Source of the DNA: Dehalococcoidia bacterium
Lineage (GTDB): Bacteria; Chloroflexota; Dehalococcoidia; UBA2979
Direction: 5' to 3'
Length of the DNA: 64,000 bases
Assembly: GCA_965204835.1 (NCBI GenBank)
Contig: OZ242017.1
Location: 1,091,842-1,155,841 of the forward strand
The position numbers were made by a program, and so were the translations under genes. Every line of letters starts with the position of its first letter. The stretch's first letter is position 1. Of this stretch, positions 4,458 to 58,123 are shown piece by piece. The notes under the pieces were generated by a model that did no database searches, had not been told where the DNA came from, and saw only the letters and a program-made list of their open reading frames with translations.

Positions 4458-5717
4458 GTGCGCATGGCTCGCGATGGCCTTCGCCGCCTCAGTGCGCTTG
4501 CGCTGTGGGCACTACTCGTTATTCCCGTTGCTGCGTGCACGAATCCCGCCGACGAGACCGTGGGTGGGGAGACCGTCGCTCCCTCACCGACAGCGGCCTC
4601 GACCCCCGCACCGGCGGCAACAGTCGCAACGAGCGCGACGCAGACCGCGACTCCCGCACCGACGGCGTCCGTTGCAGCGAGCCCGACACAGGTCCCGACT
4701 CCCGCACCGACGGCGACAGTCGCAGCAAGTCCCACGCAGGCTCCGACACCGCCCGCGACGCCCGTACCGCAGACCTCGCCAAGCCCAACGCCCGCTCCGG
4801 CAGCCACCACGACCGCGACGACTACGACGCTGAGCCTCGACGGAATCGCCGTGGCGCCCGAGAACTGCGCGGGGTACAACCGTGACCACTTCGCCGACTA
4901 TAACGCCCGCGCACTGCGCGACGGCTGGGACGCCGAGGATGGTGCGGCCGACGGCATCATCACCGGGTGGTACACCGGGCAGCGACTGGCGAACAACGGA
5001 CAGTCCGTCCACGTCGAGCACGTCGTCGCCCTCAAGGAAGCATGGTGCTCCGGCTATCGGGAGCCCTCGCTCGGGAACTGGTCGGCGAATCTTCGGCCGG
5101 CCCAGGCGGCCCTCAACCTGTCGAAGTCGGCTCGCGACCCCGCCGAGTGGGATCGGCCGGATCTCCCCGGCTGGTGTCGTTATCTCGCGCTCCACGTCCA
5201 GGTCAAGCGAGAGCTGGGGATGACCGCCGACCGTGCGGAACTCGAGTACATCGCCCGCTCATGGGCCGCCCACTGCGGCGACGCCGTGGCCGTGCCGACC
5301 GTCGAGCGAACACCGACTCCTGTGCCAACGGCGACGGCCGGATCGGTCTACACCGGGCCACAGCCGGCCCGGACCTGTGGAGAGTTCGGCTGGCGCGTCG
5401 ACCGTCGCACGCACCCGAATCTCTACGCTGCCCTGGACGCGCTGGGGATGCGCGACGGAAACAGCGACGGGATCATGTGCAACGCGGAGCGAGCCTACAA
5501 CGGACCGGACTACCCGGCCCAATCGCCGTCCGCGACTTCGACTCCAACGGCGAGTTCTAGTCCGGCGCAGGAGTTCCACTGCCACTGTAGACGCGTGATC
5601 AACGCCGGTACTCGCTGCGATCAGCGGTACACCGCGCAAGGCGGCCCCGGGTACTGCCACACCGGGGAGCCTCACGGAGCCTTCAATACATGGCCGCCGC
5701 CGCACAGCGGAAACTAG
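4458..5717 (+). CDS. Secreted lipoprotein with a DUF1524 (HNH/His-Me finger endonuclease-like, GmrSD C-terminal type) domain and a C-terminal Excalibur-like calcium-binding motif; Pro/Thr/Ala-rich linker
   Basis: There is a signal peptide with lipobox (LLVIPVAAC). The linker is low complexity (TPAPTASVAASPTQVPTPAPTATVAASPTQAPTPP). The core (NCAGYNRDHFADY...HVEHVVALKEAWCSGY...W...NL..A...NLSKSARDPAEW) matches secreted DUF1524 proteins. RDGNSDGIMCN resembles the Excalibur DxDxDGxxCE motif. The start may be GTG 4458 or ATG 4464. Confidence 0.65.
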   Translation: MRMARDGLRRLSALALWALLVIPVAACTNPADETVGGETVAPSPTAASTPAPAATVATSATQTATPAPTASVAASPTQVPTPAPTATVAASPTQAPTPPATPVPQTSPSPTPAPAATTTATTTTLSLDGIAVAPENCAGYNRDHFADYNARALRDGWDAEDGAADGIITGWYTGQRLANNGQSVHVEHVVALKEAWCSGYREPSLGNWSANLRPAQAALNLSKSARDPAEWDRPDLPGWCRYLALHVQVKRELGMTADRAELEYIARSWAAHCGDAVAVPTVERTPTPVPTATAGSVYTGPQPARTCGEFGWRVDRRTHPNLYAALDALGMRDGNSDGIMCNAERAYNGPDYPAQSPSATSTPTASSSPAQEFHCHCRRVINAGTRCDQRYTAQGGPGYCHTGEPHGAFNTWPPPHSGN

Positions 5718-5727
5718 TGGCGACTAC

Positions 5728-7011
5728 TCACGCGATCGCGCCGAGCTCTCGCAGGCGCGCGATCTCCGCGTCGTCGATGCCGTGCTCGCGCAGCACCTCG
5801 TCCGTGTGGCGGCCGAGGGGCGGCGAGGGGCGGTCGGTGCCCGTCGGCGTCTCCGACATGGAGACGATCGGGCCGACCATACGCTCGGGGCCCGTCAACT
5901 CGTGCTCCAGGTCGATCATGTAGCCCATCGCCTCGACCTGCGGGTCGTCGGCCATGTCCTCGGGCCAGTTCACCTTCGAGATTGGCGCGCCCTCGCGGTC
6001 GAAGATCTCGATCCACTCGTCCATGGTCTTCGTCATCATGATCCCGCGGATGCGCTCCAGCATCACGTCGACGAGCTTGCGGTTCTCCGGCGGGATCGAG
6101 TCGAACTCGGGGTCGGCCGTCGGGTCGTCCTCGACGCCGATGGCGCGCCGCATCTGGTCGCGGTTGAGCGGGGTGAGCGCGCCGAGGATGACGCCGCCGT
6201 CCTTGACGGCGTAGCCGCCGTAGAAGAGCCGCGCCGCGGCGCGCCCCATCACGTCGAAGAGGTTGCCGCGCGCGTCGAGCAGCTCCTTGTAGCTGCCGCC
6301 GGCCGCGCGCACCTCGTGCATCCGCTCCAGCGCCTTGTCGGTGGTCTGCGCGTCGAGCGCGGGGAGCTTGCCGATGCGCGTGCCCTGCAGCGCGAGGCCC
6401 GCGCGCAGCAGCGATGTCTCGACGAACTGGCCCTGCCCGGTGCGCTCGCGGTGGAAGAGCGCCGCCGAGATCGCCATGGCGCCGGCGAGGCCTGCCTGGA
6501 AGTCGGCGGGCGCGGTCGCGGTGATGATCTCGGGCTCGCCGAACTCGCCCACCTTGCCGTCGCCGGCGAGGAGGCCCGAGTAGGCCTGCGCGACGGCGTC
6601 GGAGCCCGAGCGGAACTCGCTGGGGCCGCCCCGGCCGAAGCCGGTGTTCTCGAAGTAGATGATGTCGGGGCGGAACTGCTTCAGCGTCTCGTAGTCGACT
6701 CGCAGCCGCTCGGGCACGCCCGGGCGGGCGTTGATGAGGAACACGTCGAAGCCCGGGATGATGCGGTGCACCATCTCCTGGGCGTCGGGCGAGCGCAGGT
6801 CGATGACGAGCGAGCGCTTGCCGCGGTTGAGGGAGTGGAATCCCTTGCTCTCGCCGGGCACGAAGCCGCCGGCCTGCCGGCTACCCTCGCCGCCCGGGGG
6901 CTCGACCTTGATCACGTCGGCCCCGAGGTCGGCCAGGTTGAGGCCGCAGTAGGGTCCCGCGACGATCTGCGAGACCTCGAACACCTTGATGCCATCCAGC
7001 GGACCCGGCAT
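5728..7011 (-). CDS. CoA-transferase family III (CaiB/BaiF) protein
   Basis: The N-terminus (LDGIKVFEVSQIVAGPYCGLNLADLGADVIKVEPPGG) matches the family. I chose the internal ATG at 7011 (MPGPLDG); the ORF track extends to 7086. Confidence 0.8.
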   Translation of the reverse strand: MPGPLDGIKVFEVSQIVAGPYCGLNLADLGADVIKVEPPGGEGSRQAGGFVPGESKGFHSLNRGKRSLVIDLRSPDAQEMVHRIIPGFDVFLINARPGVPERLRVDYETLKQFRPDIIYFENTGFGRGGPSEFRSGSDAVAQAYSGLLAGDGKVGEFGEPEIITATAPADFQAGLAGAMAISAALFHRERTGQGQFVETSLLRAGLALQGTRIGKLPALDAQTTDKALERMHEVRAAGGSYKELLDARGNLFDVMGRAAARLFYGGYAVKDGGVILGALTPLNRDQMRRAIGVEDDPTADPEFDSIPPENRKLVDVMLERIRGIMMTKTMDEWIEIFDREGAPISKVNWPEDMADDPQVEAMGYMIDLEHELTGPERMVGPIVSMSETPTGTDRPSPPLGRHTDEVLREHGIDDAEIARLRELGAIA

Positions 7012-7131
7012 GTACGACCCCTCCCCCATGTGCGGCGAACCCACGCCGCAGGCGCCTCGCCCCGACTCATGTACGCGAGGGCGCAAGCATACGCAACCGT
7101 GGAGCGGTCGAGGGGGCGGGGCCTGCCCCGG

Positions 7132-9934: not shown

Positions 9935-10267
9935 GTGAACGCACAGACCACCCCCGAGGTGCTGCCCGCGCGGCGCATTGCCGTGGGTGACCTCGTCATC
10001 GACCGCGAGCGCTACCTCGTCACCATCGGGGAGCGCACCGCCGAGCTGACCTACATGGAGTTCGAGGCGCTCTACCTCATCGCTTCCGAGGACGGGCGTG
10101 TCGCCTCGTACGAGACGCTCGCCGAGGCGCTGTGGGAGGACGCGGACAGCGGGCATCGCAGGCGCCTCGCCGTGCTGGTCTCGCGCATCCGCTCCAAGCT
10201 CGGGCACGGCGCGGACTACCTCCAGACCGTGCGCCAGGTCGGATACCGGCTGCTCGCGCACGAGTAG
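9935..10267 (+). CDS. Stand-alone OmpR/PhoB-type winged-helix DNA-binding protein (trans_reg_C domain only, no receiver domain)
   Basis: The domain pattern is (IAVGDLVIDRERYLVTIGERTAELTYMEFEALYLIAS...VLVSRIRSKLG...VRQVGYRL). The GTG start at 9935 leaves only about 110 aa and there is no receiver domain upstream in frame. It sits where glnD or glnR-associated genes often follow amtB-glnK. Confidence 0.6.
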   Translation: MNAQTTPEVLPARRIAVGDLVIDRERYLVTIGERTAELTYMEFEALYLIASEDGRVASYETLAEALWEDADSGHRRRLAVLVSRIRSKLGHGADYLQTVRQVGYRLLAHE

Positions 10268-10352
10268 GGGCCACTGGCCCGCCAGGGCGCTACGATGGCC
10301 CGAGCCGGCGCACCTCGCCGGCTCGTTCGCATTGCGAGGGCATCGAGGGGCC

Positions 10353-11513
10353 ATGGCCACGCGGGACCTCCACCAGGTCGCCATCGTCGGCGCGTACAAC
10401 ACCCTGCAGGCCCGGCGCCTGCCGGACGAGACATCGTTCTCGATCACCCTCGACGCCGTGCGCGGGGCCCTCGCGGACGCGGGCATCGAGGCCCGTGACG
10501 TCAACGGCCTGAACATCACGACCGGCACGGGGGCGGGCTCGCAAAACCAGCGGGACTGGGTGCACCAGTTCGGCGGCCGGCCGATGTGGATGGGCACGCA
10601 GTCGACGGGCATCCCCGCCGTGCTCGAAGCCGCCTCGGCGATCGCCGCCGGCTACTGCCACACGGTCGTGCTGGCCAACGGCCAGGCCGGCGCGTACACG
10701 GAGCGCGCCTCGACAGCCCCGTGGACGCGCCCGAGCAACGAGTTCGTCGAGTGCTGGGGGCTGTACACGGCGGCCGAGTTCGCGCTGATCGCGCAGCGCC
10801 ACATGCACCTCTACGGCACGAAGCCCGAGCACCTCGCCGAGGTGGCCTCGGCCGTGCGCACGCATGGCGGGATGAACCCCGAGGCCGTCTACTCGGACCG
10901 CGTGATCACGCCCGAGGACGTGCTCAACTCCCCGATGATCGCCGACCCGTTCCGCCTGCTCGACTGCGCGATGACCGGCGAGGGCGGCGCGGGGCTCGTG
11001 CTCACGTCGGTCGAGCGTGCCCGCGACCTCGACGTTCAGCCGGTCTACGTGCTCGGCGGCGGGCTCGACCGTCGAGGCCCCTCGTACGTCATGGCGCCGC
11101 TGTGGGACGTGGCGGGCGATGTCGGGCGGTTCGCGGCCGAGCAGGCCTTCGCGGCGTGCGGGCTGGGCCCCTCCGATGTCGACGTGTGCGAGTTCTACGA
11201 CCCGTTCTCGTTCGAGGTCATCCGCCAGTTCGAGGCGTACGGCTTCTGCGGGGAAGGCGAGGGCGGCCCGTTCGTCATGGACGGCCGCGTCCGCGGCGGC
11301 GGCGAGTACCCGATCTGCACCGACGGCGGCACCATGTCGTTCAGCCACCCCGGCACCGCGCAGCTGCTCCAGAAGGTCATCGCCGGCACGAAGCAGCTCC
11401 GCGGCACGGAGGGGCCCCGGCAGGTCGAGGGCGCTCAGGTGGCGATGGTGAGCAACGGCGGCGCGGGGGCGCTCTTCACGGACGTCGTGCTGCTCGGCAA
11501 CGAGCAGCCGTGA
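10353..11513 (+). CDS. Thiolase-like protein (SCP-x / nonspecific lipid-transfer thiolase family)
   Basis: ATG at 10353 ([17 protein letters not shown]...). The protein has a thiolase fold with the C-terminal CxDGG-like motif ([18 protein letters not shown]). Confidence 0.7.
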
Positions 11514-37293: not shown

Positions 37294-38340
37294 GTGACGG
37301 CTGAGCAGATTCGCCTCACCGACCTCGCATCCTGCGGCGGCTGAGCGGGAAAGCTGGGTCTCGCGACCCTGGCGCAGGTGCTGCGCCCCCTGCATGAGGT
37401 CTTCGCTCCCGGGCAGCACCCCGAGCTGCTCGTTGGCCTCGCGCCGTCCGATGACGCCGCGGTGTTCCGCGTGAGCGACGACCTCGCCGTCATCCAGACG
37501 CTCGACTTCTTCCCGCCGGTGGTCGACGACCCCTACATCTACGGGCAGATCGCCGCGGCGAACGCCATGTCCGACGTGTACGCGATGGGCGGCGAGGTGA
37601 AGCTCGCGCTCAACATCGCGGCGTTCCCGGAGGACCTCGACCCCGAGCTGCTCGCCGAGATCGTGCGCGGCGGCGCGGACAAGGTCGCCGAGGCGGGCGG
37701 CGTCGTGGCCGGCGGCCACACGGTGATCGACGCGGAGCCGAAGTACGGGCTCTCCGTGATGGGCGTGATCCACCCCGACGCCGTGCTCACCACCGGCGGC
37801 GCGCAGCCCGGCGACGCGCTGCTGCTCACCAAGCCGCTCGGCACCGGCATCCTCATGAGCGCCGCCGGCCGCGAGGGCGCCGAGGCGGGCTTCGAGGCTG
37901 CCGTCGAGTCGATGCGCGCGCTCAACCGCCACCCGGCCCACCTCGCACGCGCCGCGGCGGCGCACGCGGTCACGGACGTGACGGGGTTCGGGCTCGCCGG
38001 CCACGCCTCCGAGGTGGCGCAGCAGAGCGGCGCGACGCTGGTCTTCGACCTCGACGCGTTGCCGCTGCTGCCGGACGCCGCCCGCTTCGCCGCCGAGGGC
38101 GTCGTGACGGGCGGCGGCAACCGCAACGTCGCGCACCTCGGCGACCGCGTGCGCATCGAGGGCGAGCCCGACCAGGCGCTCGTCGACGTGTTCTACGACC
38201 CGCAGACCTCGGGCGGCCTGCTCATCGCCGTGCCCGAGGCCGATGCCGCCGCGCTCAGCGACGCAATCGCGGGCGAGGGCGGCGGATGCTGGCGCATCGG
38301 GCACGTCGAGGAGGGCCCGCCGCTCGTGGTGGCACGGTGA
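37294..38340 (+). CDS. selD: Selenide, water dikinase (selenophosphate synthetase) encoded as a selenoprotein: in-frame UGA (Sec) at 37342-37344
   Basis: GTG at 37294 is preceded by GGAGGG at 37282-37287. It translates to VTAEQIRLTDLASCGG-U-AGKLGLATLAQVLRPLHEV..., which aligns with E. coli SelD [20 protein letters not shown], with U17 on Cys17 and K20 on K20. The rest (DDAAVF...DFFPPVVDDPY...TDVTGFGLAGH...DPQTSGGLL) is an unambiguous SelD body. The ORF track reported only the part after the UGA (37378-38340). Two small hairpins lie 10-45 nt downstream of the UGA. Confidence 0.85.
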
Positions 38341-39083
38341 GGCGGCTGCTCGGGGCGCTGCTCGCCCTGCTGGCCATCGTGCTGGCACTGGCGGCCGCGG
38401 CCTGCTTCGGCGGCGACGAGGAACCAGCGGCGCCCACCGCCACTCCGACTGCGACCTCGATGCCGGTACCGACCCCCACGCCCGTCGACCCGGCCGCGGT
38501 GGTCCACGAGTCGGCCGACCGCATGGAGGGCATCCAGCGGTTCCACTTCACGCTCGACCACGAGAACGGGGCGAGCGAGATCGTGCGCGGCATCATGATG
38601 GTGTACGCCGAAGGCGACTTCGACGGCGCGGAGCGCATGCGCGCGGAGATCGAGGGTGCGCTCGGCACGGTGAAGTTCGAGACCGCCGTCATCGTGCTAC
38701 CCGAGGGGAGCTGGCTCAAGAACCCGTTCGACCGCTCGTGGGAGGCCGAGGAGATCTCCATCGAGGAGTTCTTCGACCCGCAGAACGGCGTCGCCGCGCT
38801 CATGCGCCAGGTGACGGAGCCCACCCTCGTCGGCCGCGAGGAGTTCGGGGGCGTCGAGACGTACCGCATCGACGTGCTCGCCGACTCGGGCGACCTCGCG
38901 ATCTTCCCGACCGCCGAGCCCGGCTTCGAGGTGCGTGCGACGCTCTGGATCGGCGTGGACGACCTGCTGCTGTACCGCGTGGACGTGCTCGGCGCGATCT
39001 CGGAGGACGAGGAGTCCGACATCCTGCGACGCCTCGAGCTGAGCCGCTTCGGCGAGGACGTGGACATTGCCCCGCCGCCGTGA
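38337..39083 (+). CDS. Lipoprotein, LppX/LprG-like (putative)
   Basis: The GTG at 38337 overlaps the selD stop as GTGA. Signal peptide plus lipobox (LLALLAIVLALAAAAC) and a Pro/Thr linker. The mature domain has weak LprG-like beta-rich features. Its position directly upstream of an MFS pump mirrors the mycobacterial lprG-p55 operon. Confidence 0.5.
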   Translation: MRRLLGALLALLAIVLALAAAACFGGDEEPAAPTATPTATSMPVPTPTPVDPAAVVHESADRMEGIQRFHFTLDHENGASEIVRGIMMVYAEGDFDGAERMRAEIEGALGTVKFETAVIVLPEGSWLKNPFDRSWEAEEISIEEFFDPQNGVAALMRQVTEPTLVGREEFGGVETYRIDVLADSGDLAIFPTAEPGFEVRATLWIGVDDLLLYRVDVLGAISEDEESDILRRLELSRFGEDVDIAPPP

Positions 39084-40569
39084 TCCGGGCCACGATGAGG
39101 CCGAAGACCTCGACGCCTCCACGTCGCGCGGCAGCGCCTCGCTGCTGATCGCCGTCGCGGGCGGCGTCTTCATCGCCGCCGACGACCAGACCTCGGTGGT
39201 CACGGTGCTGCCGGCGCTCATCCCCGACATCGGCCTCGCGGTCGACGACTTCTTCCTCGCGTCGTGGGTGATCAACGGCTACCTGCTCGGCTACATCGTG
39301 GCGCTGCCGATCGTCGGCCGCATCGCCGATGCGCGCGGGCACGGCCGCGTGTACGCGGGCTCGCTCGGCGTGTTCATGCTCGGCAGCGCGCTGGTGGCCG
39401 CCGCGCCGGACTTCTGGTCCCTCGTCGTCGCGAGGGGCCTGCAGGCCGTCGGCGGCGGCGCGGTCGTGCCGGTGGCGATGGCCATCGTCGTGACGCAGAT
39501 GCCGCCCGAGCGCCGCGCGCTGGGGCTGGGTGCGATCGCCGCGGCGTCTGAGGCGGGAGCACTCGTTGGCCCGCTCTGGGGCGGCCTCATCACCGAGCTG
39601 TGGGGCTGGCGGTGGATGTTCTGGCTCAACCTGCCCATGTCGCTGCCGGTGCTCGGCGCCGTGTGGTGGCTCGCGCGCAACGAACGCGCCGAGGGTCGCA
39701 TCGACTGGCCGGGCGCGGCGCTCCTCGCTGCGGCGCTGGCCGCGCTCACCATCGCCATCGCCGACGACCCGATCGCGCCCCGCCACTGGGCGATCACGAC
39801 GCTGCTCCTCGCGGGGACGGCCGCGCTCGCGGTCGTCTTCGCGCTGCGTCAGCGCTGCGTCGAGGAGCCGATGGTGCGGCTCTCGATGTTCGCCTCGAAG
39901 CAGGTGTCGAGCGCCGCAGTGATGAGCGTGCTGGTGGGCGCGGGGCTCATCACCGCGCTGATCAGCGTGCCGCTGTTCGTGAACCTCGTGCTCGTCGAGC
40001 GACCGATCGACGGGGGCTTCACGCTGCTGCGCTTCACCGCCGCCGTGCCCGTCGGCGCGCTCGCCGGGGGGTGGGTTACGGGGCGCATCGGGCCGCGGCT
40101 GCCGGCCGCCGCCGGCGTGCTGCTCGGCGCCGCATGCTTCGCGGGGCTGCTGCCGTGGGATGAGGTGCTCCCCGAGGTGTGGCGCAGCACGCCGCTCATC
40201 GTCGGCGGCTTCGGGTTCGGGCTGCTGATCGCCCCGCTCGGCGTGGCGGTGCTCAGCCACGTGCGCGAGGAGGAGCGCGCCGTGGCCGCCTCGTGGCTCA
40301 CGCTGGCGCGGATGGGCGGGATGCTGGTGGGGACGGGCCTGCTCACCTCGCACGGCCTCGGGCGCTTCTACGCGCGGGCCGGTGCGATCGAGTTCGACTC
40401 GCCGGAGTTCGCCGAGCTGGTGACCGAGGCGCAGGTCTCGACCTTCCACGAGATCTGGGTCGTCGCCGCACTCGTGCTGGTGGTGACCGCTGCGCTAGCG
40501 TGGTGGCTCGGTGGCCGCGCCGAGCCCGGCGAGGAGGCCGCGGAGTGGTGGTCCGCGCCGACCAGGTAG
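39067..40569 (+). CDS. MFS transporter (DHA2 drug:H+ antiporter-like, about 14 TM)
   Basis: MFS motifs (ADDQTSVVTVLPALIPDIG...GRIADARGHGRV...RGLQAVGGGAVVP). The TTG start at 39067 overlaps the end of the lipoprotein gene, so the start is uncertain. Confidence 0.75.
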   Translation: MPRRRDPGHDEAEDLDASTSRGSASLLIAVAGGVFIAADDQTSVVTVLPALIPDIGLAVDDFFLASWVINGYLLGYIVALPIVGRIADARGHGRVYAGSLGVFMLGSALVAAAPDFWSLVVARGLQAVGGGAVVPVAMAIVVTQMPPERRALGLGAIAAASEAGALVGPLWGGLITELWGWRWMFWLNLPMSLPVLGAVWWLARNERAEGRIDWPGAALLAAALAALTIAIADDPIAPRHWAITTLLLAGTAALAVVFALRQRCVEEPMVRLSMFASKQVSSAAVMSVLVGAGLITALISVPLFVNLVLVERPIDGGFTLLRFTAAVPVGALAGGWVTGRIGPRLPAAAGVLLGAACFAGLLPWDEVLPEVWRSTPLIVGGFGFGLLIAPLGVAVLSHVREEERAVAASWLTLARMGGMLVGTGLLTSHGLGRFYARAGAIEFDSPEFAELVTEAQVSTFHEIWVVAALVLVVTAALAWWLGGRAEPGEEAAEWWSAPTR

Positions 40570-40594
40570 GCGCCCTCGGTCGACACACGCGAAC

Positions 40595-40616
40595 GCGCCC
40601 CGGGCAACCGGGGCGC
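40595..40616. terminator. Perfect hairpin GCGCCCCGG-GCAA-CCGGGGCGC between the convergent MFS gene and ACAD copy A
   Basis: 9-bp GC stem with a GCAA loop. A nearly identical element recurs downstream of each ACAD paralog. Confidence 0.5.
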
Positions 40617-40642
40617 GCTGCGTGGTGCGTGCGAGGGCGGGA

Positions 40643-41866
40643 CTAGCCGCGCGGCAGCGCGAGTCCTCGCGTCGCGATGATGTTGCGCTGGATCTCGTTC
40701 GAGCCGCCGAAGATCGTGTAGACGACGCTGTGCACGTAGAGCTGGGTGAACCGCGCGTCGAGCGGGGTGCGCTCGTGGGCGCGGTCCCAGATGTTCGAGT
40801 AGAGCCCGAACACCTTCATGCCGGTGTTCGCGGTGCGCTGGTTCAGCTCGGAGCCGAAGATCTTCGAGGTCGACGCCTCGTAGTTCGGGACCATCCCGCT
40901 CGCCTGGATCGAGATGATGCGGAACGAGAAGTTGAACAGCACCTCCGACTCGATCCAGCGGTCGGCGATGAGCGTGCGGGCGCGGTCGCCGCGGTCCTGC
41001 GCCCGCAGCCGGCCCTCGTCGGTGTCGAGGTAGTCGATGAGCGAGCGGAGGCGTCGCCGCGTCTCGACCGCGCCGGCGATGTTGGAGCGCTCGAAGTCGA
41101 GCAGCGTCATGCCGACGTACCAGCCGCGGTTGACCTCGCCGATGACGTTGGTGGCGGGGACGCGGACGTCCTCGAAGAACGTCTCGTTGGTGCCGTGCTC
41201 CCAGCCCATGGTGATGATGGGGCGGACGGAGATCCCGTTGTTCTCCTGGGGCATCACCATGAAGGTGATGCCGCGGTGCTTCGGGGCGTCGGGGTCGGTG
41301 CGGAACATCCCGAAGACCCAGTTGGACTTGTGGGCCGAGGAGGTCCACATCTTCTGGCCGTTGATGATGTACTCGTCGCCGTCGCGGACCGCGCGCGTCT
41401 GCAGCGAGGCGAGGTCCGACCCCGCGCCCGGCTCCGAGAACCCCTGCGCCCAGAGGATCTCGCCGCGCAGCGTCGGGGGTAGCAGCCGCTCCTTCTGCTC
41501 GTCGGTGCCGTGGATGAGCACCGTGGGGCCGAGCAGCGAGAGGCCGCCGCCGCCCACCAGCGGCGCCTCGGCCTCGGCCATCTCCATGTTGAAGATGAAC
41601 TGCTCCATGGTCGTCAGGCCGGCGCCGCCGTACTCCTGTGGCCAGTGCGGGGCGGACCAGCTGCGCGAGTCCAGCGTCGCGGCCCACTCGCGCGCCGCGG
41701 CCTGCGCCTCCTCGCTGCCGTGGACCATGTCCTGCTGCCAGTTGTCCTCGAGGGTGACGGCGCTCCAGCGCCGCTTGTCCTTGTAGTACTGCGGCAGGTT
41801 CTCGTCGATGAAGCTGCGCACGTCCTCGCGGAACGCGGCCTGCTCTGCAGTGTCTTCCCAGTCCAT
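40643..41866 (-). CDS. Acyl-CoA dehydrogenase (tandem paralog A)
   Basis: 407 aa from ATG 41866 (MDWEDTAEQAAFREDVRSF...). ACAD N/M/C domain signatures are present (GFSEPGAGSDLASLQTRAVRDGDEYIINGQKMWTS ... YEASTSKIFGSE). Confidence 0.85.
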   Translation of the reverse strand: MDWEDTAEQAAFREDVRSFIDENLPQYYKDKRRWSAVTLEDNWQQDMVHGSEEAQAAAREWAATLDSRSWSAPHWPQEYGGAGLTTMEQFIFNMEMAEAEAPLVGGGGLSLLGPTVLIHGTDEQKERLLPPTLRGEILWAQGFSEPGAGSDLASLQTRAVRDGDEYIINGQKMWTSSAHKSNWVFGMFRTDPDAPKHRGITFMVMPQENNGISVRPIITMGWEHGTNETFFEDVRVPATNVIGEVNRGWYVGMTLLDFERSNIAGAVETRRRLRSLIDYLDTDEGRLRAQDRGDRARTLIADRWIESEVLFNFSFRIISIQASGMVPNYEASTSKIFGSELNQRTANTGMKVFGLYSNIWDRAHERTPLDARFTQLYVHSVVYTIFGGSNEIQRNIIATRGLALPRG

Positions 41867-41918
41867 GCGCTGCCTCCTCGGCGTGCCGGTCACGTCTCCG
41901 GCGTGATTGCTGCGAGGG

Positions 41919-41928
41919 AGTCTAACAG
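41919..41928 (-). promoter_or_regulatory. Conserved extended -10-like motif cTGtTAGACT upstream of ACAD copy A; equivalents are upstream of copy B (about 43305) and copy C (about 44985)
   Basis: The motif on the gene strand is ACGCTG(T/C/G)TAGA(C/A)TC(C/T)C(T/G)CGCA. It occurs about 50 nt upstream of each of the three ACAD starts and resembles the actinobacterial extended -10 (TGnTAnnnT). Confidence 0.35.
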
Positions 41929-41984
41929 CGTCCCTGCTCACGGGCGTCTGGCTCGCAGGCGCCAGCCCGGCGGGCGACGCGAAC

Positions 41985-42006
41985 GCGCCCCGGTTGCCCG
42001 GGGCGC
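41985..42006. terminator. Hairpin GCGCCCCGG-TTGC-CCGGGGCGC downstream of ACAD copy B (loop inverted relative to the other two copies)
   Basis: Same 9-bp stem as at 40595 and 43661, but the loop reads TTGC instead of GCAA. Confidence 0.5.
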
Positions 42007-42031
42007 GCTGCGTGGTGCCTGCGAGGTGGGA

Positions 42032-43255
42032 CTAGCCGCGCGGCAGGGCCAGCCCTCGCGTCGCGATGATGTTGCGCTGGATCTCGTTGGAGCCGCCGAA
42101 GATCGTGAACACCACGCTGTGCACGTAGAGCTGCGTGAAGCGCGCGTCCAGCGGGGTCAACTCGTGCGCCCGGTCCCAGATGTTGGCGTACAGGCCGAAC
42201 GCCTTCATGCCGGTGTTCGCCGTGCGCTGGTCCAGCTCGGAGCCGAAGATCTTCGAGGTCGACGCCTCGTAGTTCGGGACCATCCCGCTCGACTGCATCG
42301 AGATGATGCGGAACGAGAAGTTGAACAGCACCTCGGACTCGATCCAGCGGTCGGCGATCAGCGCGCGCGTCCGTTGCGCCCGGTCCTGCGACCGCAACTG
42401 CCCGTCGTCCGTGTCGAGGTAGTCGATCAGCGACTGCAGCCGCCGACGAGTCTCGACCGCGCCCGCGATGTTGGAGCGCTCGAAGTCGAGCAGCGTCATC
42501 CCGACGTACCAGCCGCGGTTGACCTCGCCGATGACGTTGTTGGCGGGCACGTGGACGTCCTCGAAGAACGTCTCGTTGGTGCCGTGCTCCCAGCCCATGG
42601 TGGTGATGGGACGGACGGTGATGCCGTTGTTGAGCTGCGGCATGACCATGAACGTGATGCCGCGGTGCTTCGGGGCGTCGGGGTCCGTGCGGAACATCCC
42701 GAACAGCCAGTTGGACTTGTGGGCCGAGGAGGTCCACAGCTTCTGGCCGTTGATGATGTACTCGTCACCGTCGCGCACCGCGCGCGTCTGCAGCGAGGCG
42801 AGGTCTGAGCCGGCGCCCGGCTCCGAGAAGCCCTGCGACCACAGCATCTCGCCGCGCAGCGACGGCTCCAGCAGGCGCTCCTTCTGCTCGTCGGTGCCGT
42901 GGATCAGCACCGTCGGCCCGAGGAGCGAGAGGCCGCTGCCGCCGACCATGGGAGCCTCGGCCTCGGCCATCTCCATGTTGAAGATGAACTGCTCCATGGT
43001 GGTGAGCCCGCCGCCGCCGTACTCGTTCGGCCAGTGCGGCGCGACCCAGTTCCGCGAGGAGAGCACGTCGGCCCACTCCTGCGCGGCGGCCTTGGCCTCG
43101 TCGCTGCCGTGCATCATGTGGTCCTGCCAGTCATCCTCCAGGGTGACTGCGTTCCACTCCCGCTTGTCCTTGTAGTACTGCGGCAGGTTCTCCTCGATGA
43201 ACGAGCGGACGTCCTCGCGGAACGTCGCCTGCTCTGCAGTGTCTTCCCAGTCCAT
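42032..43255 (-). CDS. Acyl-CoA dehydrogenase (tandem paralog B)
   Basis: 407 aa, about 85-90% identical to copies A and C (MDWEDTAEQATFREDVRSFIEENLPQYYKDKREWNAVTLEDDW...). Confidence 0.85.
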   Translation of the reverse strand: MDWEDTAEQATFREDVRSFIEENLPQYYKDKREWNAVTLEDDWQDHMMHGSDEAKAAAQEWADVLSSRNWVAPHWPNEYGGGGLTTMEQFIFNMEMAEAEAPMVGGSGLSLLGPTVLIHGTDEQKERLLEPSLRGEMLWSQGFSEPGAGSDLASLQTRAVRDGDEYIINGQKLWTSSAHKSNWLFGMFRTDPDAPKHRGITFMVMPQLNNGITVRPITTMGWEHGTNETFFEDVHVPANNVIGEVNRGWYVGMTLLDFERSNIAGAVETRRRLQSLIDYLDTDDGQLRSQDRAQRTRALIADRWIESEVLFNFSFRIISMQSSGMVPNYEASTSKIFGSELDQRTANTGMKAFGLYANIWDRAHELTPLDARFTQLYVHSVVFTIFGGSNEIQRNIIATRGLALPRG

Positions 43256-43399
43256 GCGCTGCCTCCTCGTGGACGCGTCGCGTCCGCCGTGCGTATCTGC
43301 GAGGGAGTCTAGCAGCGTCTGTCACGCCACCGGAGCGGATCACGGGCGGGTCGCGAGGTCGCTGGCCATCGGGAGCGACTGCTGAGCTATGATCCGGTC

Positions 43400-43630
43400 A
43401 TGGCGACCACACGACTCGACATGGACGGGGCGCAAGCCCAGCTCCCGGAGCACGTCGCGCGGCTGGAGCCCGGCGATAGCATCATCCTGTGTCGCGAAGG
43501 CCGCCCCGTGGCCGAGATCCGGCCGATCGAGGAGCCCCTGGCCGAGCCTCGCCCGGTCGGGTTGGGCAAGGGTCTCGTCGAGATCCCCGACTCCTTCTTC
43601 GAGCCGCTTCCCCCGTCTGCCTTCTCGTAG
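43400..43630 (+). CDS. Orphan type II antitoxin-like protein (VapB/Phd-like; C-terminal LGxGKGxxEIPDSFFEPLP motif)
   Basis: 76 aa (MATTRLDMDGAQAQLPEHVARLEPGDSIILCREGRPVAEIRPIEE...PVGLGKGLVEIPDSFFEPLP). It resembles antitoxins whose C-terminus carries the (L)LKG...DDFDxPL motif. No cognate toxin gene follows it. Confidence 0.5.
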   Translation: MATTRLDMDGAQAQLPEHVARLEPGDSIILCREGRPVAEIRPIEEPLAEPRPVGLGKGLVEIPDSFFEPLPPSAFS

Positions 43631-43660
43631 CGATAGCGCACGGTCCACGCAGATGCAAAC

Positions 43661-43682
43661 GCGCCCCGGGCAACCGGGGCGC
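43661..43682. terminator. Hairpin GCGCCCCGG-GCAA-CCGGGGCGC downstream of ACAD copy C
   Basis: Third copy of the element, about 25 nt after the copy C stop. Confidence 0.5.
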
Positions 43683-43707
43683 GCTGCTGCGTGCGTGCGA
43701 GGAGGGA

Positions 43708-44931
43708 CTAGCTGCGAGGCAGCGCCAGTCCGCGCGTCGCGATGATGTTGCGCTGGATCTCGTTCGACCCACCGAAGATCGTGAACACCACGCTGTGGAC
43801 GTAGAGCTGCGTGAAGCGCGCGTCCAGCGGCGTGAGCTCGTGCCCGCGGTCCCAGATGTTCGCGTAGAGCCCGAACGCCTTCATGCCGGTGTTTGCCGTG
43901 CGCTGCGAGAGCTCCGAGCTGAAGATCTTCGAGGTCGACGCCTCGTAGTTCGGGACCATCCCGCCCGCCTGCATCGAGATGATGCGGAACGAGAAGTTGA
44001 ACAGCACCTCGGACTCGATCCAGCGGTCGGCGATCAGCCCGCGCGTCCGGCCTGCGCGGTCCTGCGACTTCAGCGAGCCCTCGTCCGTGTGCAGGTAGTC
44101 GATCAGCGACTGCAGCCGCCGACGCGTCTCGACCGCGCCCGCGATGTTGGAGCGCTCGAAGTCGAGCAGGGTCATGCCGACGTACCAGCCGCGGTTGACC
44201 TCGCCGATGACGTTGTTGGCGGGGACGCGCACGTCCTCGAAGAACGTCTCGTTGGTGGCGTGCTCGAAGCCCATCGAGATGATCGGGCGGACCGAGATGC
44301 CGTTGTTGGTCTGCGGCATGACCATGAAGCTGATGCCGCGGTGCTTCGGCGCGTCGGGGTCGGTGCGGAACATGCCGAACAGCCAGTTGGACTTGTGGGC
44401 CGTGGAGGTCCACATTTTCTGGCCGTTGATGATGTACTCGTCGCCGTCGCGGACGGCGCGCGTCTGCAGCGAGGCGAGGTCTGAGCCGGCGCCCGGCTCG
44501 GAGAAGCCCTGCGACCAGAGCATCTCACCGCGCAGCGTCGGCGCCAGCAGGCGCTCCTTCTGCTCGTCGGTGCCGTGGATCAGCACGGTCGGGCCCATGA
44601 GCGAGAGGCCCTGGCCGCCGACCATGGGGGCCTCGGCCTCGGCCATCTCCATGTTGAAGATGAACTGCTCCATGGTGGTGAGGCCGGCGCCGCCGTACTC
44701 CTGCGGCCAGTGCGGGGCGACCCAGTTGCGCGAGGACATGCGGTCGGACCACTCCTGCGCGGCGGCCTTCGCCTGGTCGCTGCCGTGGACCATGTCCATC
44801 TGCCAGTCATCCTCGAGGGTGACGGCGTTCCAGGCCCGCTTGTCCTTGTAGTACTGCGGCAGGTTGTCGTCGATGAAGCTGCGGACGTTCTCGCGGAATG
44901 CCGCCTGCTCTTCGGTGTCTGCCCAATCCAT
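43708..44931 (-). CDS. Acyl-CoA dehydrogenase (tandem paralog C)
   Basis: 407 aa (MDWADTEEQAAFRENVRSFIDDNLPQYYKDKRAWNAVTLEDDW...). Same family as copies A and B. Confidence 0.85.
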   Translation of the reverse strand: MDWADTEEQAAFRENVRSFIDDNLPQYYKDKRAWNAVTLEDDWQMDMVHGSDQAKAAAQEWSDRMSSRNWVAPHWPQEYGGAGLTTMEQFIFNMEMAEAEAPMVGGQGLSLMGPTVLIHGTDEQKERLLAPTLRGEMLWSQGFSEPGAGSDLASLQTRAVRDGDEYIINGQKMWTSTAHKSNWLFGMFRTDPDAPKHRGISFMVMPQTNNGISVRPIISMGFEHATNETFFEDVRVPANNVIGEVNRGWYVGMTLLDFERSNIAGAVETRRRLQSLIDYLHTDEGSLKSQDRAGRTRGLIADRWIESEVLFNFSFRIISMQAGGMVPNYEASTSKIFSSELSQRTANTGMKAFGLYANIWDRGHELTPLDARFTQLYVHSVVFTIFGGSNEIQRNIIATRGLALPRS

Positions 44932-45029
44932 GCATGCCTCCTCGCCGTGCGCGTCGCGCCGCTGCGTGTGTGCTGACGCGAGATTCTACCAGCGTTTCCC
45001 GTTACGTCCCGCCGCCGCGCCGACGAGGA

Positions 45030-45671
45030 TCAGGCGGCGCTGATGAACTGGTGGAGCAGGTCGTAGACCTCCTGCTCCACCCCCAGCAGGCGGTGGCCCG
45101 TGCCCGGCAGGATCACCATGTGCTTCGGGTCCTGCGCCCGCTGGTAGATGTCGTCCGAGGCCAGCGGTAGCAGCACCTGGTCGTCCTCGCCGTGGATCAG
45201 CAGCAGCGGCTTGCCAAGCTGGTCGACCTCCTGCGTGCCGTAGCGCTGCGCGGCCAGCGCCGCGACGGCCGTCAGGAACGGGCTCAACACGCCCGACTTG
45301 ATCGCCACCGCGCCCGCGTAGGAGTGCCCGACCACGACCGCGCGCCCACCGCCGAGCCCCTTCAGCAGTGAGCACGCCGCGAGGACGTCGATCACGGTCT
45401 CCTCGAGCTCGCCGGTGAGTCGCGGGCTGATGCGCAGCGACGTCACGCCCTGCTCGACGAGGTCCTCGGCGAGCTTCGCGTAGACGCCCCCGGCGGGGCC
45501 CTCGGTGCCGACGAAGATCGCGCACTTCACGCTGCCCTCGGCCGGGTCCATGAGCGCGCTCAGCGGGCCGTGGTTCGTCTCGATGTTGACCTCGAGGCGG
45601 TTGCCCTCGCCCGTCGGCTGGGCGCTGACCTGCTCGATGCGGACGACGACGTCGCCGCCCGGCTCGGCCAT
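45030..45671 (-). CDS. Alpha/beta hydrolase (dienelactone hydrolase-like)
   Basis: GHSYAG nucleophile elbow and a C-terminal HG...GH pattern (LLIHGEDDQV...GTGHRL). Start chosen at ATG 45671. Confidence 0.65.
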   Translation of the reverse strand: MAEPGGDVVVRIEQVSAQPTGEGNRLEVNIETNHGPLSALMDPAEGSVKCAIFVGTEGPAGGVYAKLAEDLVEQGVTSLRISPRLTGELEETVIDVLAACSLLKGLGGGRAVVVGHSYAGAVAIKSGVLSPFLTAVAALAAQRYGTQEVDQLGKPLLLIHGEDDQVLLPLASDDIYQRAQDPKHMVILPGTGHRLLGVEQEVYDLLHQFISAA

Positions 45672-45749
45672 GCTGCCGGAGCCCTGGCTCACCATGTCTC
45701 GCCTCCCGGTCCCGACCGAGTCACCGTCGCGCCGGACGGAGCCGCCTGC

Positions 45750-55567: not shown

Positions 55568-55663
55568 CGCGGACCTCCTCGCCTCGCGTGTCGGCCCGTG
55601 CAGCGTACCGCGTGACGGGGCCCCGGCGTGGTACCGTCTCGCGAGCACCGAAGGGGGCGCACG

Positions 55664-56524
55664 ATGACGAGCGAGCCGGATACCAGCACCTGGAAGAAGA
55701 CGCCCGACGGGATCGCGATCCCGCCGCCCTCGCCCGACGACGTGCTCTACGAGGCGGCCGACGGCGTGGCGAAGATCACGCTCAACCGCCCCATCGTGCT
55801 CAACGCGATCAACAAGAACGTCACCCGCCTCCTCGACGCCGCGCTCGACCAGGCCGAGGCCGACGAGGACGTGCGCGCGGTGATCCTGACCGGCGCCGGC
55901 CGCGCCTTCTCCGCGGGCGGCGACCTCTGGTCCTCGCTCTACCCGGACGACGACCCCGCGCCCGACGCGCTGGACGTGCAGTTGCGGATCTGGTCGTTCG
56001 ACAAGCCGGTGATCGCGGCGGTGCGCGGCCACGCGGTGGGGCAGGCGTGCGAGCTGGCCGGGGTGTGCGACATGACCATCGCCGGCGAGAGCGCGCGCCT
56101 CGGCGAGATCCAGATCCGCCACGGCTTCGGCGTCCCGGTACTCATCACCCCCTTCATCACCAACCAGAAGCTGGCCAAGGAAGTGCTGCTGCTCGGCGAG
56201 GTGATCCCGGCCGAGGACGCGCTGCGCATGGGACTCGTCAACCGCGTGGTCCCGGACGACGAGCTGGACGAGGCGGCGATGGAGATGGCGCGCAAGCTGG
56301 CGGCGCTGCCGCCGGTGGCGGTGCGGCTCAACAAGCGCCTCGTGAACCTCGTGTACGAGCAGATGGGGCTGATCGACGCGGTGCGCTACCGCGACAACGA
56401 CGCGCTGATGGAGTACCTGGAGGCCGAGGACACCGTCGGCACGGCCCGCCAGCGCGTCCGCGAGGAGCAGGGCTGGGCGGCGTTCAAGCGTGAACGCGAC
56501 CAGGGCTACGAGGAGGCGAAGTAG
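55664..56524 (+). CDS. Enoyl-CoA hydratase/isomerase (crotonase) family protein
   Basis: The ATG at 55664 is preceded by GAAGGGGG. Crotonase motifs are present (ITLNRPIVLNAIN...LTGAGRAFSAGGDL...AAVRGHAVGQACELA). Confidence 0.8.
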   Translation: MTSEPDTSTWKKTPDGIAIPPPSPDDVLYEAADGVAKITLNRPIVLNAINKNVTRLLDAALDQAEADEDVRAVILTGAGRAFSAGGDLWSSLYPDDDPAPDALDVQLRIWSFDKPVIAAVRGHAVGQACELAGVCDMTIAGESARLGEIQIRHGFGVPVLITPFITNQKLAKEVLLLGEVIPAEDALRMGLVNRVVPDDELDEAAMEMARKLAALPPVAVRLNKRLVNLVYEQMGLIDAVRYRDNDALMEYLEAEDTVGTARQRVREEQGWAAFKRERDQGYEEAK

Positions 56525-56590: not shown

Positions 56591-58123
56591 CCGCCGTACA
56601 GGCTCAGGCGCCGGCAAGGAGGCTGCCGCATCGTCACCACATACGAACCGGCGGCAGTCGACCACCCGCTGGACCCAATCTTCAACCCGCGCGGCGTCGC
56701 CGTGGTCGGCGTATCGACGCGACCAGGCCCGGATGGGCGCATGGGCGGCATCTTCCTCAACTCGCTGCTGGAGCAGGGCTACCACCACGGTCGCGCGCTC
56801 TACGCCGTGAACCCGAAGATGACCGAGGTGCGCGGCGTGCCGTGCTACCCCACGGTGCTCGACTGCCCGGATCCCATCGACCACGTCATCTCGCAGATCC
56901 CGTCCGAGGGGCTCCCGACGCTCGTCGAGCAGTGCATCGAGAAGGGTGTGCGGTCGCTCCACTCGTTCACGGCTGGCCTCGCCGAGACGGGCGACCCGGA
57001 CCTCGTCGCGCAGGAGCGCGCCATGGTGGCGCGCGCCCGCGAGGCGGGCATGCGGCTGATCGGCCCGAACTGCATGGGGCTCTACGTCCCCGGCGTCGGC
57101 CTCGGCTTCAACCCGCGTTCGCCGAACGAGCCGGGCAACGTCTTCCTGCTCTCGCAGTCCGGCGCGAACGCCGGCGGCATCATCGACGGCCTGGGGCGGC
57201 GCGGCCTGCGCTTCTCCAAGGGCGTCTCCTACGGCAACGCCGCCGACCTCAAGTCGCACGACTTCCTCGAGTACGCGATGGAGGACCCCCAGACGGAACT
57301 CGTCGTCGCCTACATCGAGGGGCCGCGCGACGGGCGGGCGTTCTTCGAGGCGCTGAAGAGGCTCGCCCGCGTCAAGCCGACCATCGTGCTCAAGGGCGGC
57401 ATCACCGACGACGGCGCGCGCGCGGCGAACTCGCACACCGGCTCGCTCGCCGGCTCCATCGACGTCTTCGACGCGCTGTGCCGGCAGGCCGGGGCGATGC
57501 GTGTGCGCACGCTCGAGGACCTGCTCGACCTCGCGGTGGCGATGACCACGGACATGCGCTACCTCGGCGGCAACAAGGTCACGCTCGTGGGCGCCGGCGG
57601 CGGCTTCGCGGTGCTCTCCACCGACCAGATGGCGATGGAGGGCCTCGAGGTACCGTGGCTGCCCGAGGCGACCCAGGAGCAGCTACGCGAGATCATCCCC
57701 ATCGCGGGCACCAGCATCCGCAACCCCGTCGACGCCAACTTCGGGCGCGACCACCCGATGGACTTCAGCAGCGACACCGGCCTCACCCGGCGCGTGTTCC
57801 AGTCGATTGCCTCCGCGCACTCGACCGACCTCGTGCTGACCACGGTCGGCACGCGCTGGTACCCCGGCCAGGACCACTCGGACGAGGCGCGGCAGCAGCA
57901 GCTGTCGCTGACCGCCGAGGAGCTCTCGATCATCTCGCGCGAGCACGGCGTGCCGATGGCGCTGATCCTGCGCGAGGCGCGGCTGGAGGACGCGGGCGAC
58001 TTCGTCCACGACCACGGCGTGGCTTCGTTCCCGTCGATCGAGCGCGCCGCGCGGGCGGCCGCGACGATCCTCGAGTGGCGCCGCCGGCGCGAGGGCCTGC
58101 CGGACTTCTTCACGGACAACTAG
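56591..58123 (+). CDS. Acyl-CoA synthetase (NDP-forming) / CoA-binding domain protein; start codon unresolved
   Basis: The conserved N-terminal motif LDPIFNPRGVAVVGVS lies upstream of the first canonical start (GTG 56702), and the frame is open from 56591. Succinyl-CoA-synthetase-like CoA-binding and ligase-CoA domains follow (LIGPNCMGLYVPGVGL...GGITDDGARAANSHTGSLAGS). GGAGG at 56617-56621 is followed by ATC at 56630 in frame. Confidence 0.65.
   Translation, partial: PPYRLRRRQGGCRIVTTYEPAAVDHPLDPIFNPRGVAVVGVSTRPGPDGRMGGIFLNSLLEQGYHHGRALYAVNPKMTEVRGVPCYPTVLDCPDPIDHVISQIPSEGLPTLVEQCIEKGVRSLHSFTAGLAETGDPDLVAQERAMVARAREAGMRLIGPNCMGLYVPGVGLGFNPRSPNEPGNVFLLSQSGANAGGIIDGLGRRGLRFSKGVSYGNAADLKSHDFLEYAMEDPQTELVVAYIEGPRDGRAFFEALKRLARVKPTIVLKGGITDDGARAANSHTGSLAGSIDVFDALCRQAGAMRVRTLEDLLDLAVAMTTDMRYLGGNKVTLVGAGGGFAVLSTDQMAMEGLEVPWLPEATQEQLREIIPIAGTSIRNPVDANFGRDHPMDFSSDTGLTRRVFQSIASAHSTDLVLTTVGTRWYPGQDHSDEARQQQLSLTAEELSIISREHGVPMALILREARLEDAGDFVHDHGVASFPSIERAARAAATILEWRRRREGLPDFFTDN

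Follow-up and report, generated by a model that had tools for sequence, protein, structure and literature searches.

How three closely similar genes come to stand in a row, each between what look like its own regulatory ends, is the question raised by a 64,000-nucleotide stretch of contig OZ242017.1 (assembly GCA_965204835.1) of a Dehalococcoidia bacterium, which is referred to below as the window. The genes, designated A, B and C by position, all lie on the minus strand and encode acyl-CoA dehydrogenases (ACADs). A preliminary interpretation made from the letters alone (the sequence-only reading) had taken them for a recent tandem amplification of a gene-plus-regulatory cassette, prone to recombination and possibly maintained for dosage. 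The analysis described here points to a different history, in which an ancestral cassette was tandemly duplicated twice and the locus is probably now a stable array of three diverged paralogous genes for ACADs dependent on flavin adenine dinucleotide (FAD), set in a high-GC Chloroflexi/Dehalococcoidia chromosome.

The three open reading frames (ORFs) encode 407 amino acids each and lie exactly where they were first placed (Table 1), and each protein exceeds the gathering threshold for the domains PF02771, PF02770 and PF00441 (Acyl-CoA_dh_N, _M and _1). Translation of copy A likely begins at the conserved ATG at 41866 and not at an upstream GTG at 41941. Gap-free pairwise alignments gave protein identities of 88.7 % (A/B), 87.3 % (A/C) and 89.7 % (B/C) and nucleotide identities of 88.5-90.3 %, equivalent to a divergence of 10-11.5 %, in agreement with the earlier estimate of about 85-90 %. 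The array is the sole long direct repeat of the window; its periods are 1389 and 1676 nt, and homology between the units runs from approximately 75 nt upstream of the ATG to approximately 55 nt past the stop codon, where it ends abruptly. The description of the genes as tandem paralogues duplicated together with their regulatory ends was upheld by the extent of this homology, which spans a -10-like box through to a 3' hairpin, and the alignments support a duplicated unit that took in the box, a Shine-Dalgarno site and the hairpin. Sixty-five positions vary among the paralogues and are densest at residues 41-80 and 281-300; just 16 of the 65 fall within residues 1-60, where most of the differences had been thought to lie.

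The closest database proteins to the three copies come from uncultured Chloroflexi/Dehalococcoidia. The same three-copy array, together with its neighbourhood, is present in GCA_034423375.1 (L001), in ENA contigs of 1.56 Mb (L002) and 2.58 Mb (L003), in GCA_009840945.1 (L084) and in an ENA scaffold (L085) that is identical to L084 where compared, and hence in five loci from at least four other assemblies. For L002 and L003 the comparison covered 17 kb of each contig. The records GCA_034423375.1, GCA_009840945.1, ERZ25069580 and ERZ24894577 derive from sponge or marine samples. The common gene order comprises an S9 peptidase, an NMO-like oxidoreductase, a sulfotransferase, an alpha/beta-hydrolase, the three ACADs and a convergent major facilitator superfamily (MFS) transporter with an LprG-like lipoprotein gene. 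Positional orthologues of each window copy share 95-100 % protein identity in every array, and paralogues share 86-90 % in every genome. With C, B and A counted in the order of transcription as copies 1, 2 and 3, bootstrap analysis (200 replicates, distance method) recovered the orthologue groups of copy 2 and copy 3 at 100 % and that of copy 1 at 74 %, and the window's own A, B and C formed a single group in 0 % of the trees. Because of this positional orthology and bootstrap grouping, the triplication is considered older than the split of these genomes. Copy number was three in all complete arrays seen, and the copy-number variation that had been suggested for the array was therefore not observed. 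Synonymous distances (dS) were 0.09-0.37 between orthologous ACADs and 0.14-0.41 for the neighbouring hydrolase gene. Taken together, these comparisons make it likely that the array is an old triplication conserved across related Chloroflexi/Dehalococcoidia genomes.

Relatives outside the complete arrays include L090, with at least two ACAD copies, and the single-copy loci L086, which has another gene neighbourhood, and L088. A scan of a genome collection with the family alignment returned relatives of at most 62 % identity among the matches listed, the close relatives having come from protein-database matches. The ACAD subfamily is multi-copy in Dehalococcoidia, with more than one full-length relative in 16 of the 80 reference-genome loci among the matches listed. 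The exact sequence of copy B had no match in the contig index, and the literature searched on the expansion of ACAD paralogues in SAR202 or sponge Chloroflexi contained no directly relevant work.

Amino-acid change separates the copies from one another more than it separates the genomes. Nonsynonymous distances (dN) between paralogues were 0.058-0.084, with dN/dS of 0.18-0.30, and those between orthologues 0.001-0.033, with dN/dS of 0.01-0.17. Thirty positions are fixed within each orthologue group (five genomes) and differ between groups, some of them, including 103 and 107, in the substrate-cavity loop. The paralogue values and the 30 group-specific residues carry the signature of divergence followed by constraint, and for that reason the idea that the array is dosage-adaptive was abandoned. 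On these ratios, purifying selection acts on all three copies.

A conserved extended -10-like box at about -50, first pointed out in the sequence-only reading, was recovered before each gene. The motif ACGCTGNTAGAMTC has exactly three matches, all on the minus strand (41918-41931, 43305-43318 and 44982-44995), one before each gene, and TGNTAGRMT occurs at only these three sites in the 64-kb window, with the hexamer ending 50-52 nt before the ATG; the three boxes themselves conform to TGnTAGAMT. In 19 of 19 related genes, including that of L086, a TA[GC][AG][ACT]T sequence ends 45-53 nt before the ATG, with a TG two bases further upstream in 14 of the 19, and across these genes the box is conserved while the remaining spacer diverges. 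The Shine-Dalgarno sequence GAGGAGG is placed 7 nt before each ATG. The box is consistent with a sigma-70-type extended -10 promoter whose -35 element is weak or missing, and promoter activity is what its position and conservation would predict.

Downstream, the pattern GCGCCCCGG-N4-CCGGGGCGC has three matches in 64 kb (40595-40616, 41985-42006 and 43661-43682), one after each stop codon; the number expected by chance was 0.15 in shuffled sequences, and three matches occurred in none of 100 shuffles. The claim that the same 22-nt perfect hairpin follows each gene was correct for the stem, which is found three times, once per stop, and incorrect for the loop, which on the plus strand is TTGC in B, the reverse complement of the GCAA loops of A and C. 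The hairpin lies 20-30 nt past the stop codon, has a stem of 10-16 pairs and belongs to a 3' element of approximately 56 nt that extends from just past the stop through CGCGCCCCGG-loop-CCGGGGCGCG-UUCGCGU. The mean identity of this element is 0.89-0.90, in orthologues and paralogues alike, against 0.37-0.46 in the adjacent DNA. The proposal that it is more conserved than the coding sequence was rejected, as the two values are similar (0.89 and 0.885-0.90). The consensus folds at -32 kcal/mol into a stem of 16 pairs interrupted by a single bulge. Read in gene sense, B and the 12 orthologous copies have loops of GCAA, GUGA, GGAA or GCAC, most of which belong to the GNRA type. A G-U pair occurs in 15 of 15 copies and a second position has changed from A-U to G-U in four, both of which pair only in gene-sense RNA. 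A homologous hairpin occupies the corresponding site in L086 and L088, and one of its pairs, C-G in the crown group, is U-G in L086 and, with compensation, U-A in L088. These substitutions indicate that the stem is selected as an RNA structure. Since single-copy relatives carry both elements (the box in L086, the hairpin in L086 and L088), the hairpin and the box predate the triplication.

The hairpin may serve as a terminator or as an mRNA stabiliser. GC-rich stems without a U-tract ("I-shaped" terminators) are known from high-GC bacteria, in which they may terminate poorly and act as protectors of the mRNA 3' end, and the array hairpins resemble such structures in their GC-rich stem, their folding energy of about -32 kcal/mol and their mostly GNRA-type loops. 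The bare stem sequence is generic: it matches more than 120 unrelated metagenome contigs, of which only L115 is relevant here. Elsewhere it often precedes a T-run, the arrangement of classical terminators, whereas the array hairpins have no T-run. Rfam gave nothing above threshold in the array region or in the whole window.

Two further observations concern the 3' element. The loops of A and C (UUGC in gene sense) are flipped relative to the GCAA-type loops of B and of the 12 orthologous copies in L001, L002, L003 and L084. As the stems are perfectly palindromic, the flips could be read as two small inversions of the loop in the lineage of the window, or as a single inversion later copied. An adaptation of the flipped loops to the convergent plus-strand ORFs facing the A and C hairpins was considered and discarded, as orthologous copy-3 hairpins face the same gene unflipped. 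Between stop and stem (40625-40642, 42014-42031 and 43690-43707, minus strand), a stretch of approximately 20 nt, CCTCGCACGCACAACGCAG, is near-invariant in all 15 copies as well as in L090 and L115. It lacks a conserved downstream pairing partner and holds CCUC(C)UCG, which could pair by complementarity with the ribosome-binding region CGAGGAGG of these genes.

The best NCBIfam model for the three proteins is the PimC large subunit (TIGR03204), which aligns residues 6-402 to model positions 5-393 at 263-267 bits; membership of the PimC equivalog was rejected because this is far below the cut-off of 623.85 bits. The alignment to PimC runs from end to end, and no PimD-like small-subunit gene is found near the array. 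The best solved relatives, aligned over residues 60-406 at an E-value of about 1e-56, are Tcur3483 of Thermomonospora curvata (6wy8, 6wy9) and ChsE4/FadE26 of Mycobacterium tuberculosis (4x28). In the alpha2-beta2 steroid side-chain ACADs, alpha subunits of the ChsE4/Tcur3483 type supply the catalytic Glu together with the sites for isoalloxazine and substrate, binding of the FAD ADP-ribose falls to the beta subunit, and Pro89 of ChsE4 unwinds helix E and thereby enlarges the cavity (PMC11153573). The catalytic base in A, B and C is E259, which is invariant in 19 family members and aligns with E247 of ChsE4 and with the T255 position of MCAD (an IVD/LCAD-type site), and the position of MCAD E376 (Glu376) is Gly in all three copies. 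In the alignment to human MCAD (PDB 1ege), all three copies retain S144, S150, W174 and S176 as the counterparts of MCAD T136, S142, W166 and T168, which we take to be own-subunit FAD contacts.

A, B and C share with ChsE4 and Tcur3483 the catalytic Glu on helix G, the Gly at the MCAD Glu376 position, the helix-E Pro, a C-terminal "GG-x-NE-x-QR" motif and a "...LGLPR" tail, although the likeness is only at the level of distant homologues. Unlike these systems, the array has a Chloroflexi host, neighbours that are not steroid-catabolism genes, an extra block at about residues 41-80 and no adjacent beta gene, and it is a row of three alpha-like paralogues that each have a box and a hairpin of their own. 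The alignment to MCAD and ChsE4 does not bear out the supposition that the N-terminal 60 residues line the substrate pocket. Block 41-80 is largely a family-specific insertion; the pocket-related differences are found at positions 103 and 107, in the loop after P102, the residue that aligns with ChsE4 Pro89. Position 103 is M/M/L in the three paralogues and position 107, which differs in all three, is Q/S/G and adjoins the residue aligned with MCAD Glu99, presumably the bottom of the acyl pocket. It is plausible from these differences that A, B and C have differing substrate preferences.

The following course of events is proposed. The ancestral single-gene cassette would have comprised a TGnTAnnnT box, a leader of about 45 nt with GAGGAGG, a gene of 407 codons and a GC-rich stem-loop whose loop is of the GNRA type, and would have been duplicated twice in tandem before the present related genomes diverged. 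Each copy may then have gained its own fixed residues, some of them in the acyl-cavity loop, and have been kept since by purifying selection. Each gene is probably transcribed alone from its own box, and the stem-loop of each gene probably either marks the end of its mRNA or protects it. The outcome would be three related enzymes with somewhat different substrate preferences and not more of one enzyme.

Several observations weigh against parts of this proposal. Paralogue dS (0.25-0.35) is barely greater than the orthologue dS of 0.09-0.37, and absolute dating is unreliable because a GC content at third codon positions (GC3) of 0.97 compresses synonymous distances. L089 has the same upstream synteny with one ACAD, then a different gene, and is placed inside the array clade at just 68 % support, which bears on how deep the triplication goes. 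A consensus scan finds no -35/-10 promoter pair at the array. The hairpins are followed by UUCGCGU or by variable sequence without a U-tract, and a terminator scan calls none of them; since no U-run follows the stem, the hairpin is not a canonical intrinsic terminator. Copy C is without an upstream hairpin and could be read through from the hydrolase operon. The proposed divergence in substrate comes from alignment to ChsE4 and MCAD.

The alternative that survives best, though still an unlikely one, is that the three genes belong to one operon, possibly from the NMO, sulfotransferase and hydrolase genes onwards, in which the hairpins are intercistronic stability or processing elements and the box has a role other than that of a promoter, for example as a site for a protein or an RNase. 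One strand carries every gene between 47487 and 40643, and the missing U-tracts, terminator calls and recognisable -35 element are as this arrangement would have them, while the selection on the stem at the RNA level seen in the G-U pairs suits a stabiliser as well as a terminator. Against it, the box matches TGnTAnnnT, keeps a fixed distance to the ATG and is conserved amid a diverging spacer; the box and hairpin are kept in single-copy relatives in other gene neighbourhoods; and spacers of 140-450 nt, one of them with a gene on the opposite strand, are unusual within an operon. Separate transcription of each gene is the preferred arrangement.

It is doubtful, and more so than the operon, that A, B and C are subunits of hetero-oligomeric ACADs that pair mutually or with a beta subunit encoded elsewhere, in the manner of ChsE4-ChsE5 and PimC-PimD, to give combinatorial enzymes. 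Heterotetramers of this alpha2-beta2 class, to which ChsE1-ChsE2 also belongs, have neighbouring co-transcribed genes for the two subunits and two FAD per tetramer, their alpha subunit lacking the residues for the ADP-ribose of the partner's FAD. The proposal draws on the identity of the best solved relatives, which are the alpha subunits Tcur3483 and ChsE4, and of the best NCBIfam model, a large subunit. In addition, the positions of MCAD Q349 and G353, which we take to contact the FAD of the neighbouring subunit, are K351 and L355 in all three copies, as divergent as in ChsE4, which has E and T there; the region of MCAD R281 aligns ambiguously. Some distant family members are followed by a weak ACAD-like gene (23-30 % identical), and in a few loci two alpha-like genes precede such a gene. 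The opposing evidence begins with the window itself, where a tblastn search with copy B returned nothing beyond the three copies, and with the orthologous loci, where the fetched flanks (approximately 1 to 8 kb) contain no further ACAD gene, and hence none of the beta type adjoining the arrays. None of A, B and C is itself a beta subunit, because all three keep the catalytic Glu and the FAD residues of the isoalloxazine side and their own subunit. Separate promoters and hairpins speak against obligatory co-expression in a fixed ratio, and in 59 of 90 loci (L001-L090) there is a lone alpha-like gene without a partner. A 395-aa downstream gene in L086 was examined as a hidden beta subunit and dropped, as it has no PDB or Pfam similarity.

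Among reference Dehalococcoidia, L042, L052, L056 and L057 have a tandem pair of alpha-like genes followed by an ACAD-like gene of 25-30 % similarity, and this third gene could be a shared beta subunit. A more elaborate form of the heteromeric proposal, marginally less credible again, holds that the alpha-type A, B and C form a combinatorial set of heteromeric dehydrogenases, mutually or with one beta subunit encoded elsewhere, with cavities differing at positions 103 and 107 and a mix tuned by independent promoters; the 3' element of about 56 nt could then be a shared site of post-transcriptional control and not a simple terminator.

A recent, dosage-driven amplification of the cassette, unstable and variable in copy number, is very improbable. 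In its favour, the promoter-like box and the hairpin fall inside the repeat unit, and short stretches at the unit ends look homogenised, at the 5' end of A relative to B in the window and at the 3' ends in L002. The copies nevertheless differ at 10-11.5 % of nucleotides, have one-to-one positional orthologues in at least four other assemblies, number three in all complete arrays and carry 30 fixed paralogue-specific residues. Both the recency of the amplification and its recombination-prone character, as put forward in the sequence-only reading, therefore gave way to an old, conserved triplet with a copy number stable at three. Candidate tracts of gene conversion are short and occur at the unit ends only, in a few 90-nt windows, namely in the promoter and first 90 nt of A, which are like B in the window, and in the last 100 nt of the L002 copies. 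Concerted evolution by whole-gene conversion was rejected, within-genome likeness being absent at the whole-gene level (0 % of bootstrap trees). An assembly artefact, in which one gene was wrongly expanded or more copies were collapsed to three, can practically be dismissed, as a difference of approximately 11 % makes the copies easily distinguishable and independent NCBI and ENA assemblies agree on the array, including the contigs of 1.56 and 2.58 Mb.

Two side observations concern these unit ends. In a comparison of 41867-41932 with 43256-43320, the promoter and first 90 nt of copy A are closer to B of the same genome than to the copy-3 orthologues. The region upstream of copy B is like that of the L090 copy and unlike those of L001, L002 and L003. 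The spacers, unlike the genes, are therefore mosaics produced by short conversion or recombination tracts.

The spacer between C and B (43256-43707) is 452 nt long, compared with 122-187 nt for the spacers in relatives, and is approximately 290-310 nt longer than in relatives. Present only in the window's version of this spacer is an ORF on the opposite strand, ending 30 nt before the hairpin of copy C, that is related to an antitoxin gene of L090 (Table 1). The ORF at 43400-43630 has no Pfam or NCBIfam match of its own; its L090 homologue of 83 aa matches PF02604 at an E-value of 1.8e-5 (below gathering), is followed by a PIN toxin gene and lies with it between two ACAD copies. The DNA of the window and L090 is 75.5 % identical over 364 aligned positions, and approximately 500 nt, comprising the end of the antitoxin gene and the whole PIN gene, are gone from the window relative to L090. 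An intact type II toxin-antitoxin module at 43400-43630 was rejected, as the antitoxin homologue has no following toxin gene. In L115, too, the end of a PIN gene follows the copy-1 hairpin. By the comparison with L090 the window has a decayed toxin-antitoxin insertion between C and B, and the array varies structurally in its spacers and not in the number of ACAD copies.

The surroundings of the array are those of an ordinary chromosomal stretch, with 70.7 % GC, arginine-biosynthesis genes and recG; no tRNA genes were found. A gene for an LppX/LprAFG-family lipoprotein (38286-39083, plus strand) overlaps the start of the MFS gene, and the pair, convergent on the array and conserved in L002, L003 and L084, recalls what we take to be the mycobacterial LprG-P55 arrangement. 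The window is rich in acyl-CoA metabolism, with a thiolase-like gene (10098-11513), an enoyl-CoA hydratase gene (55628-56524) and an ADP-forming acyl-CoA synthetase-like gene (56702-58123), and it contains, close to one another, three family-III CoA-transferase genes (1824-3032 and 3042-4343, plus strand; 5728-7086, minus strand), which at 24-30 % identity are old paralogues. A 48-nt unit repeated 3.4 times (77 % matches) at 4587-4747, inside an ORF at 4458-5717 (plus strand), encodes a Thr/Pro/Ala-rich linker of a probable secreted protein or lipoprotein.

Table 1 Coordinates of the ACAD array, its regulatory elements and adjoining features, numbered from the first letter of the window
Feature	Position	Strand	Evidence or conservation
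ACAD copy C	43708..44931	-	Transcriptionally first copy (copy 1); ORF with three ACAD Pfam domains; orthologues of 96-99 % protein identity in L001, L002, L003 and L084
ACAD copy B	42032..43255	-	Second copy (copy 2); ORF with Pfam domains; positional orthologues of 99 % protein identity; group bootstrap 100 %
ACAD copy A	40643..41866	-	Third copy (copy 3); ORF with Pfam domains; orthologues of 95-96 % protein identity; group bootstrap 100 %
Extended -10-like box TGGTAGAAT, copy C	44983..44991	-	Same box before copy 1 in L001, L002, L003 and L084; TGGTAGACT in L089 and L115
Extended -10-like box TGCTAGACT, copy B	43306..43314	-	Orthologous sites TGCTAGGAT, TGGTAGGAT or TGCTAGACT
Extended -10-like box TGTTAGACT, copy A	41919..41927	-	Orthologous sites GGGTAGACT, GCGTAGAAT or GGGTAGAAT
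Shine-Dalgarno site GAGGAGG	C 44937..44943; B 43262-43268; A 41873-41879	-	Read from the sequence; conserved in orthologous loci
3' element of C, CCTCGCACGC...CGCGCCCCGG-UUGC-CCGGGGCGCG-UUUGC	43652..43707; core hairpin 43660-43683	-	Conserved
3' element of B, gene-sense loop GCAA	41976..42031; core hairpin 41984-42007	-	Conserved
3' element of A, between copy A and the convergent MFS gene	40587..40642; core hairpin 40594-40617	-	Conserved
Orphan Phd/YefM-type antitoxin relic, 76 codons, C-terminally altered	43400..43630	+	74.6 % protein identity to the L090 antitoxin
Alpha/beta-hydrolase gene, directly upstream of the three copies	45030..45695	-	Conserved neighbour
MFS transporter gene, convergent on copy A	39067..40569	+	Conserved neighbour

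Families of paralogues retained after tandem duplication are familiar from the innovation-amplification-divergence model and from mycobacteria with their many fadE genes. The array resembles them in that its copies have their own regulatory ends and that amino-acid change was faster between paralogues than between orthologues, followed by purifying selection on each copy, and nothing sets it apart in kind. In this sense the array is ordinary and matters little beyond annotation. It is nonetheless a clean example of the duplication and divergence of a promoter-gene-hairpin cassette, from an uncultured lineage of Chloroflexi with many acyl-CoA-metabolism paralogues in its genomes, and it warns that tandem genes of approximately 89 % identity need not mean recent amplification. 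It also offers a candidate promoter consensus, TGnTAGAMT, and a candidate 3'-end element for a group without experimental transcription data, and it marks residues 103, 107 and 218-225 as places to seek specificity differences in ChsE4-like dehydrogenases. Were the copies after all to form combinatorial heteromers, they would give sponge-associated Chloroflexi a modular means of attack on bulky or branched acyl-CoAs.

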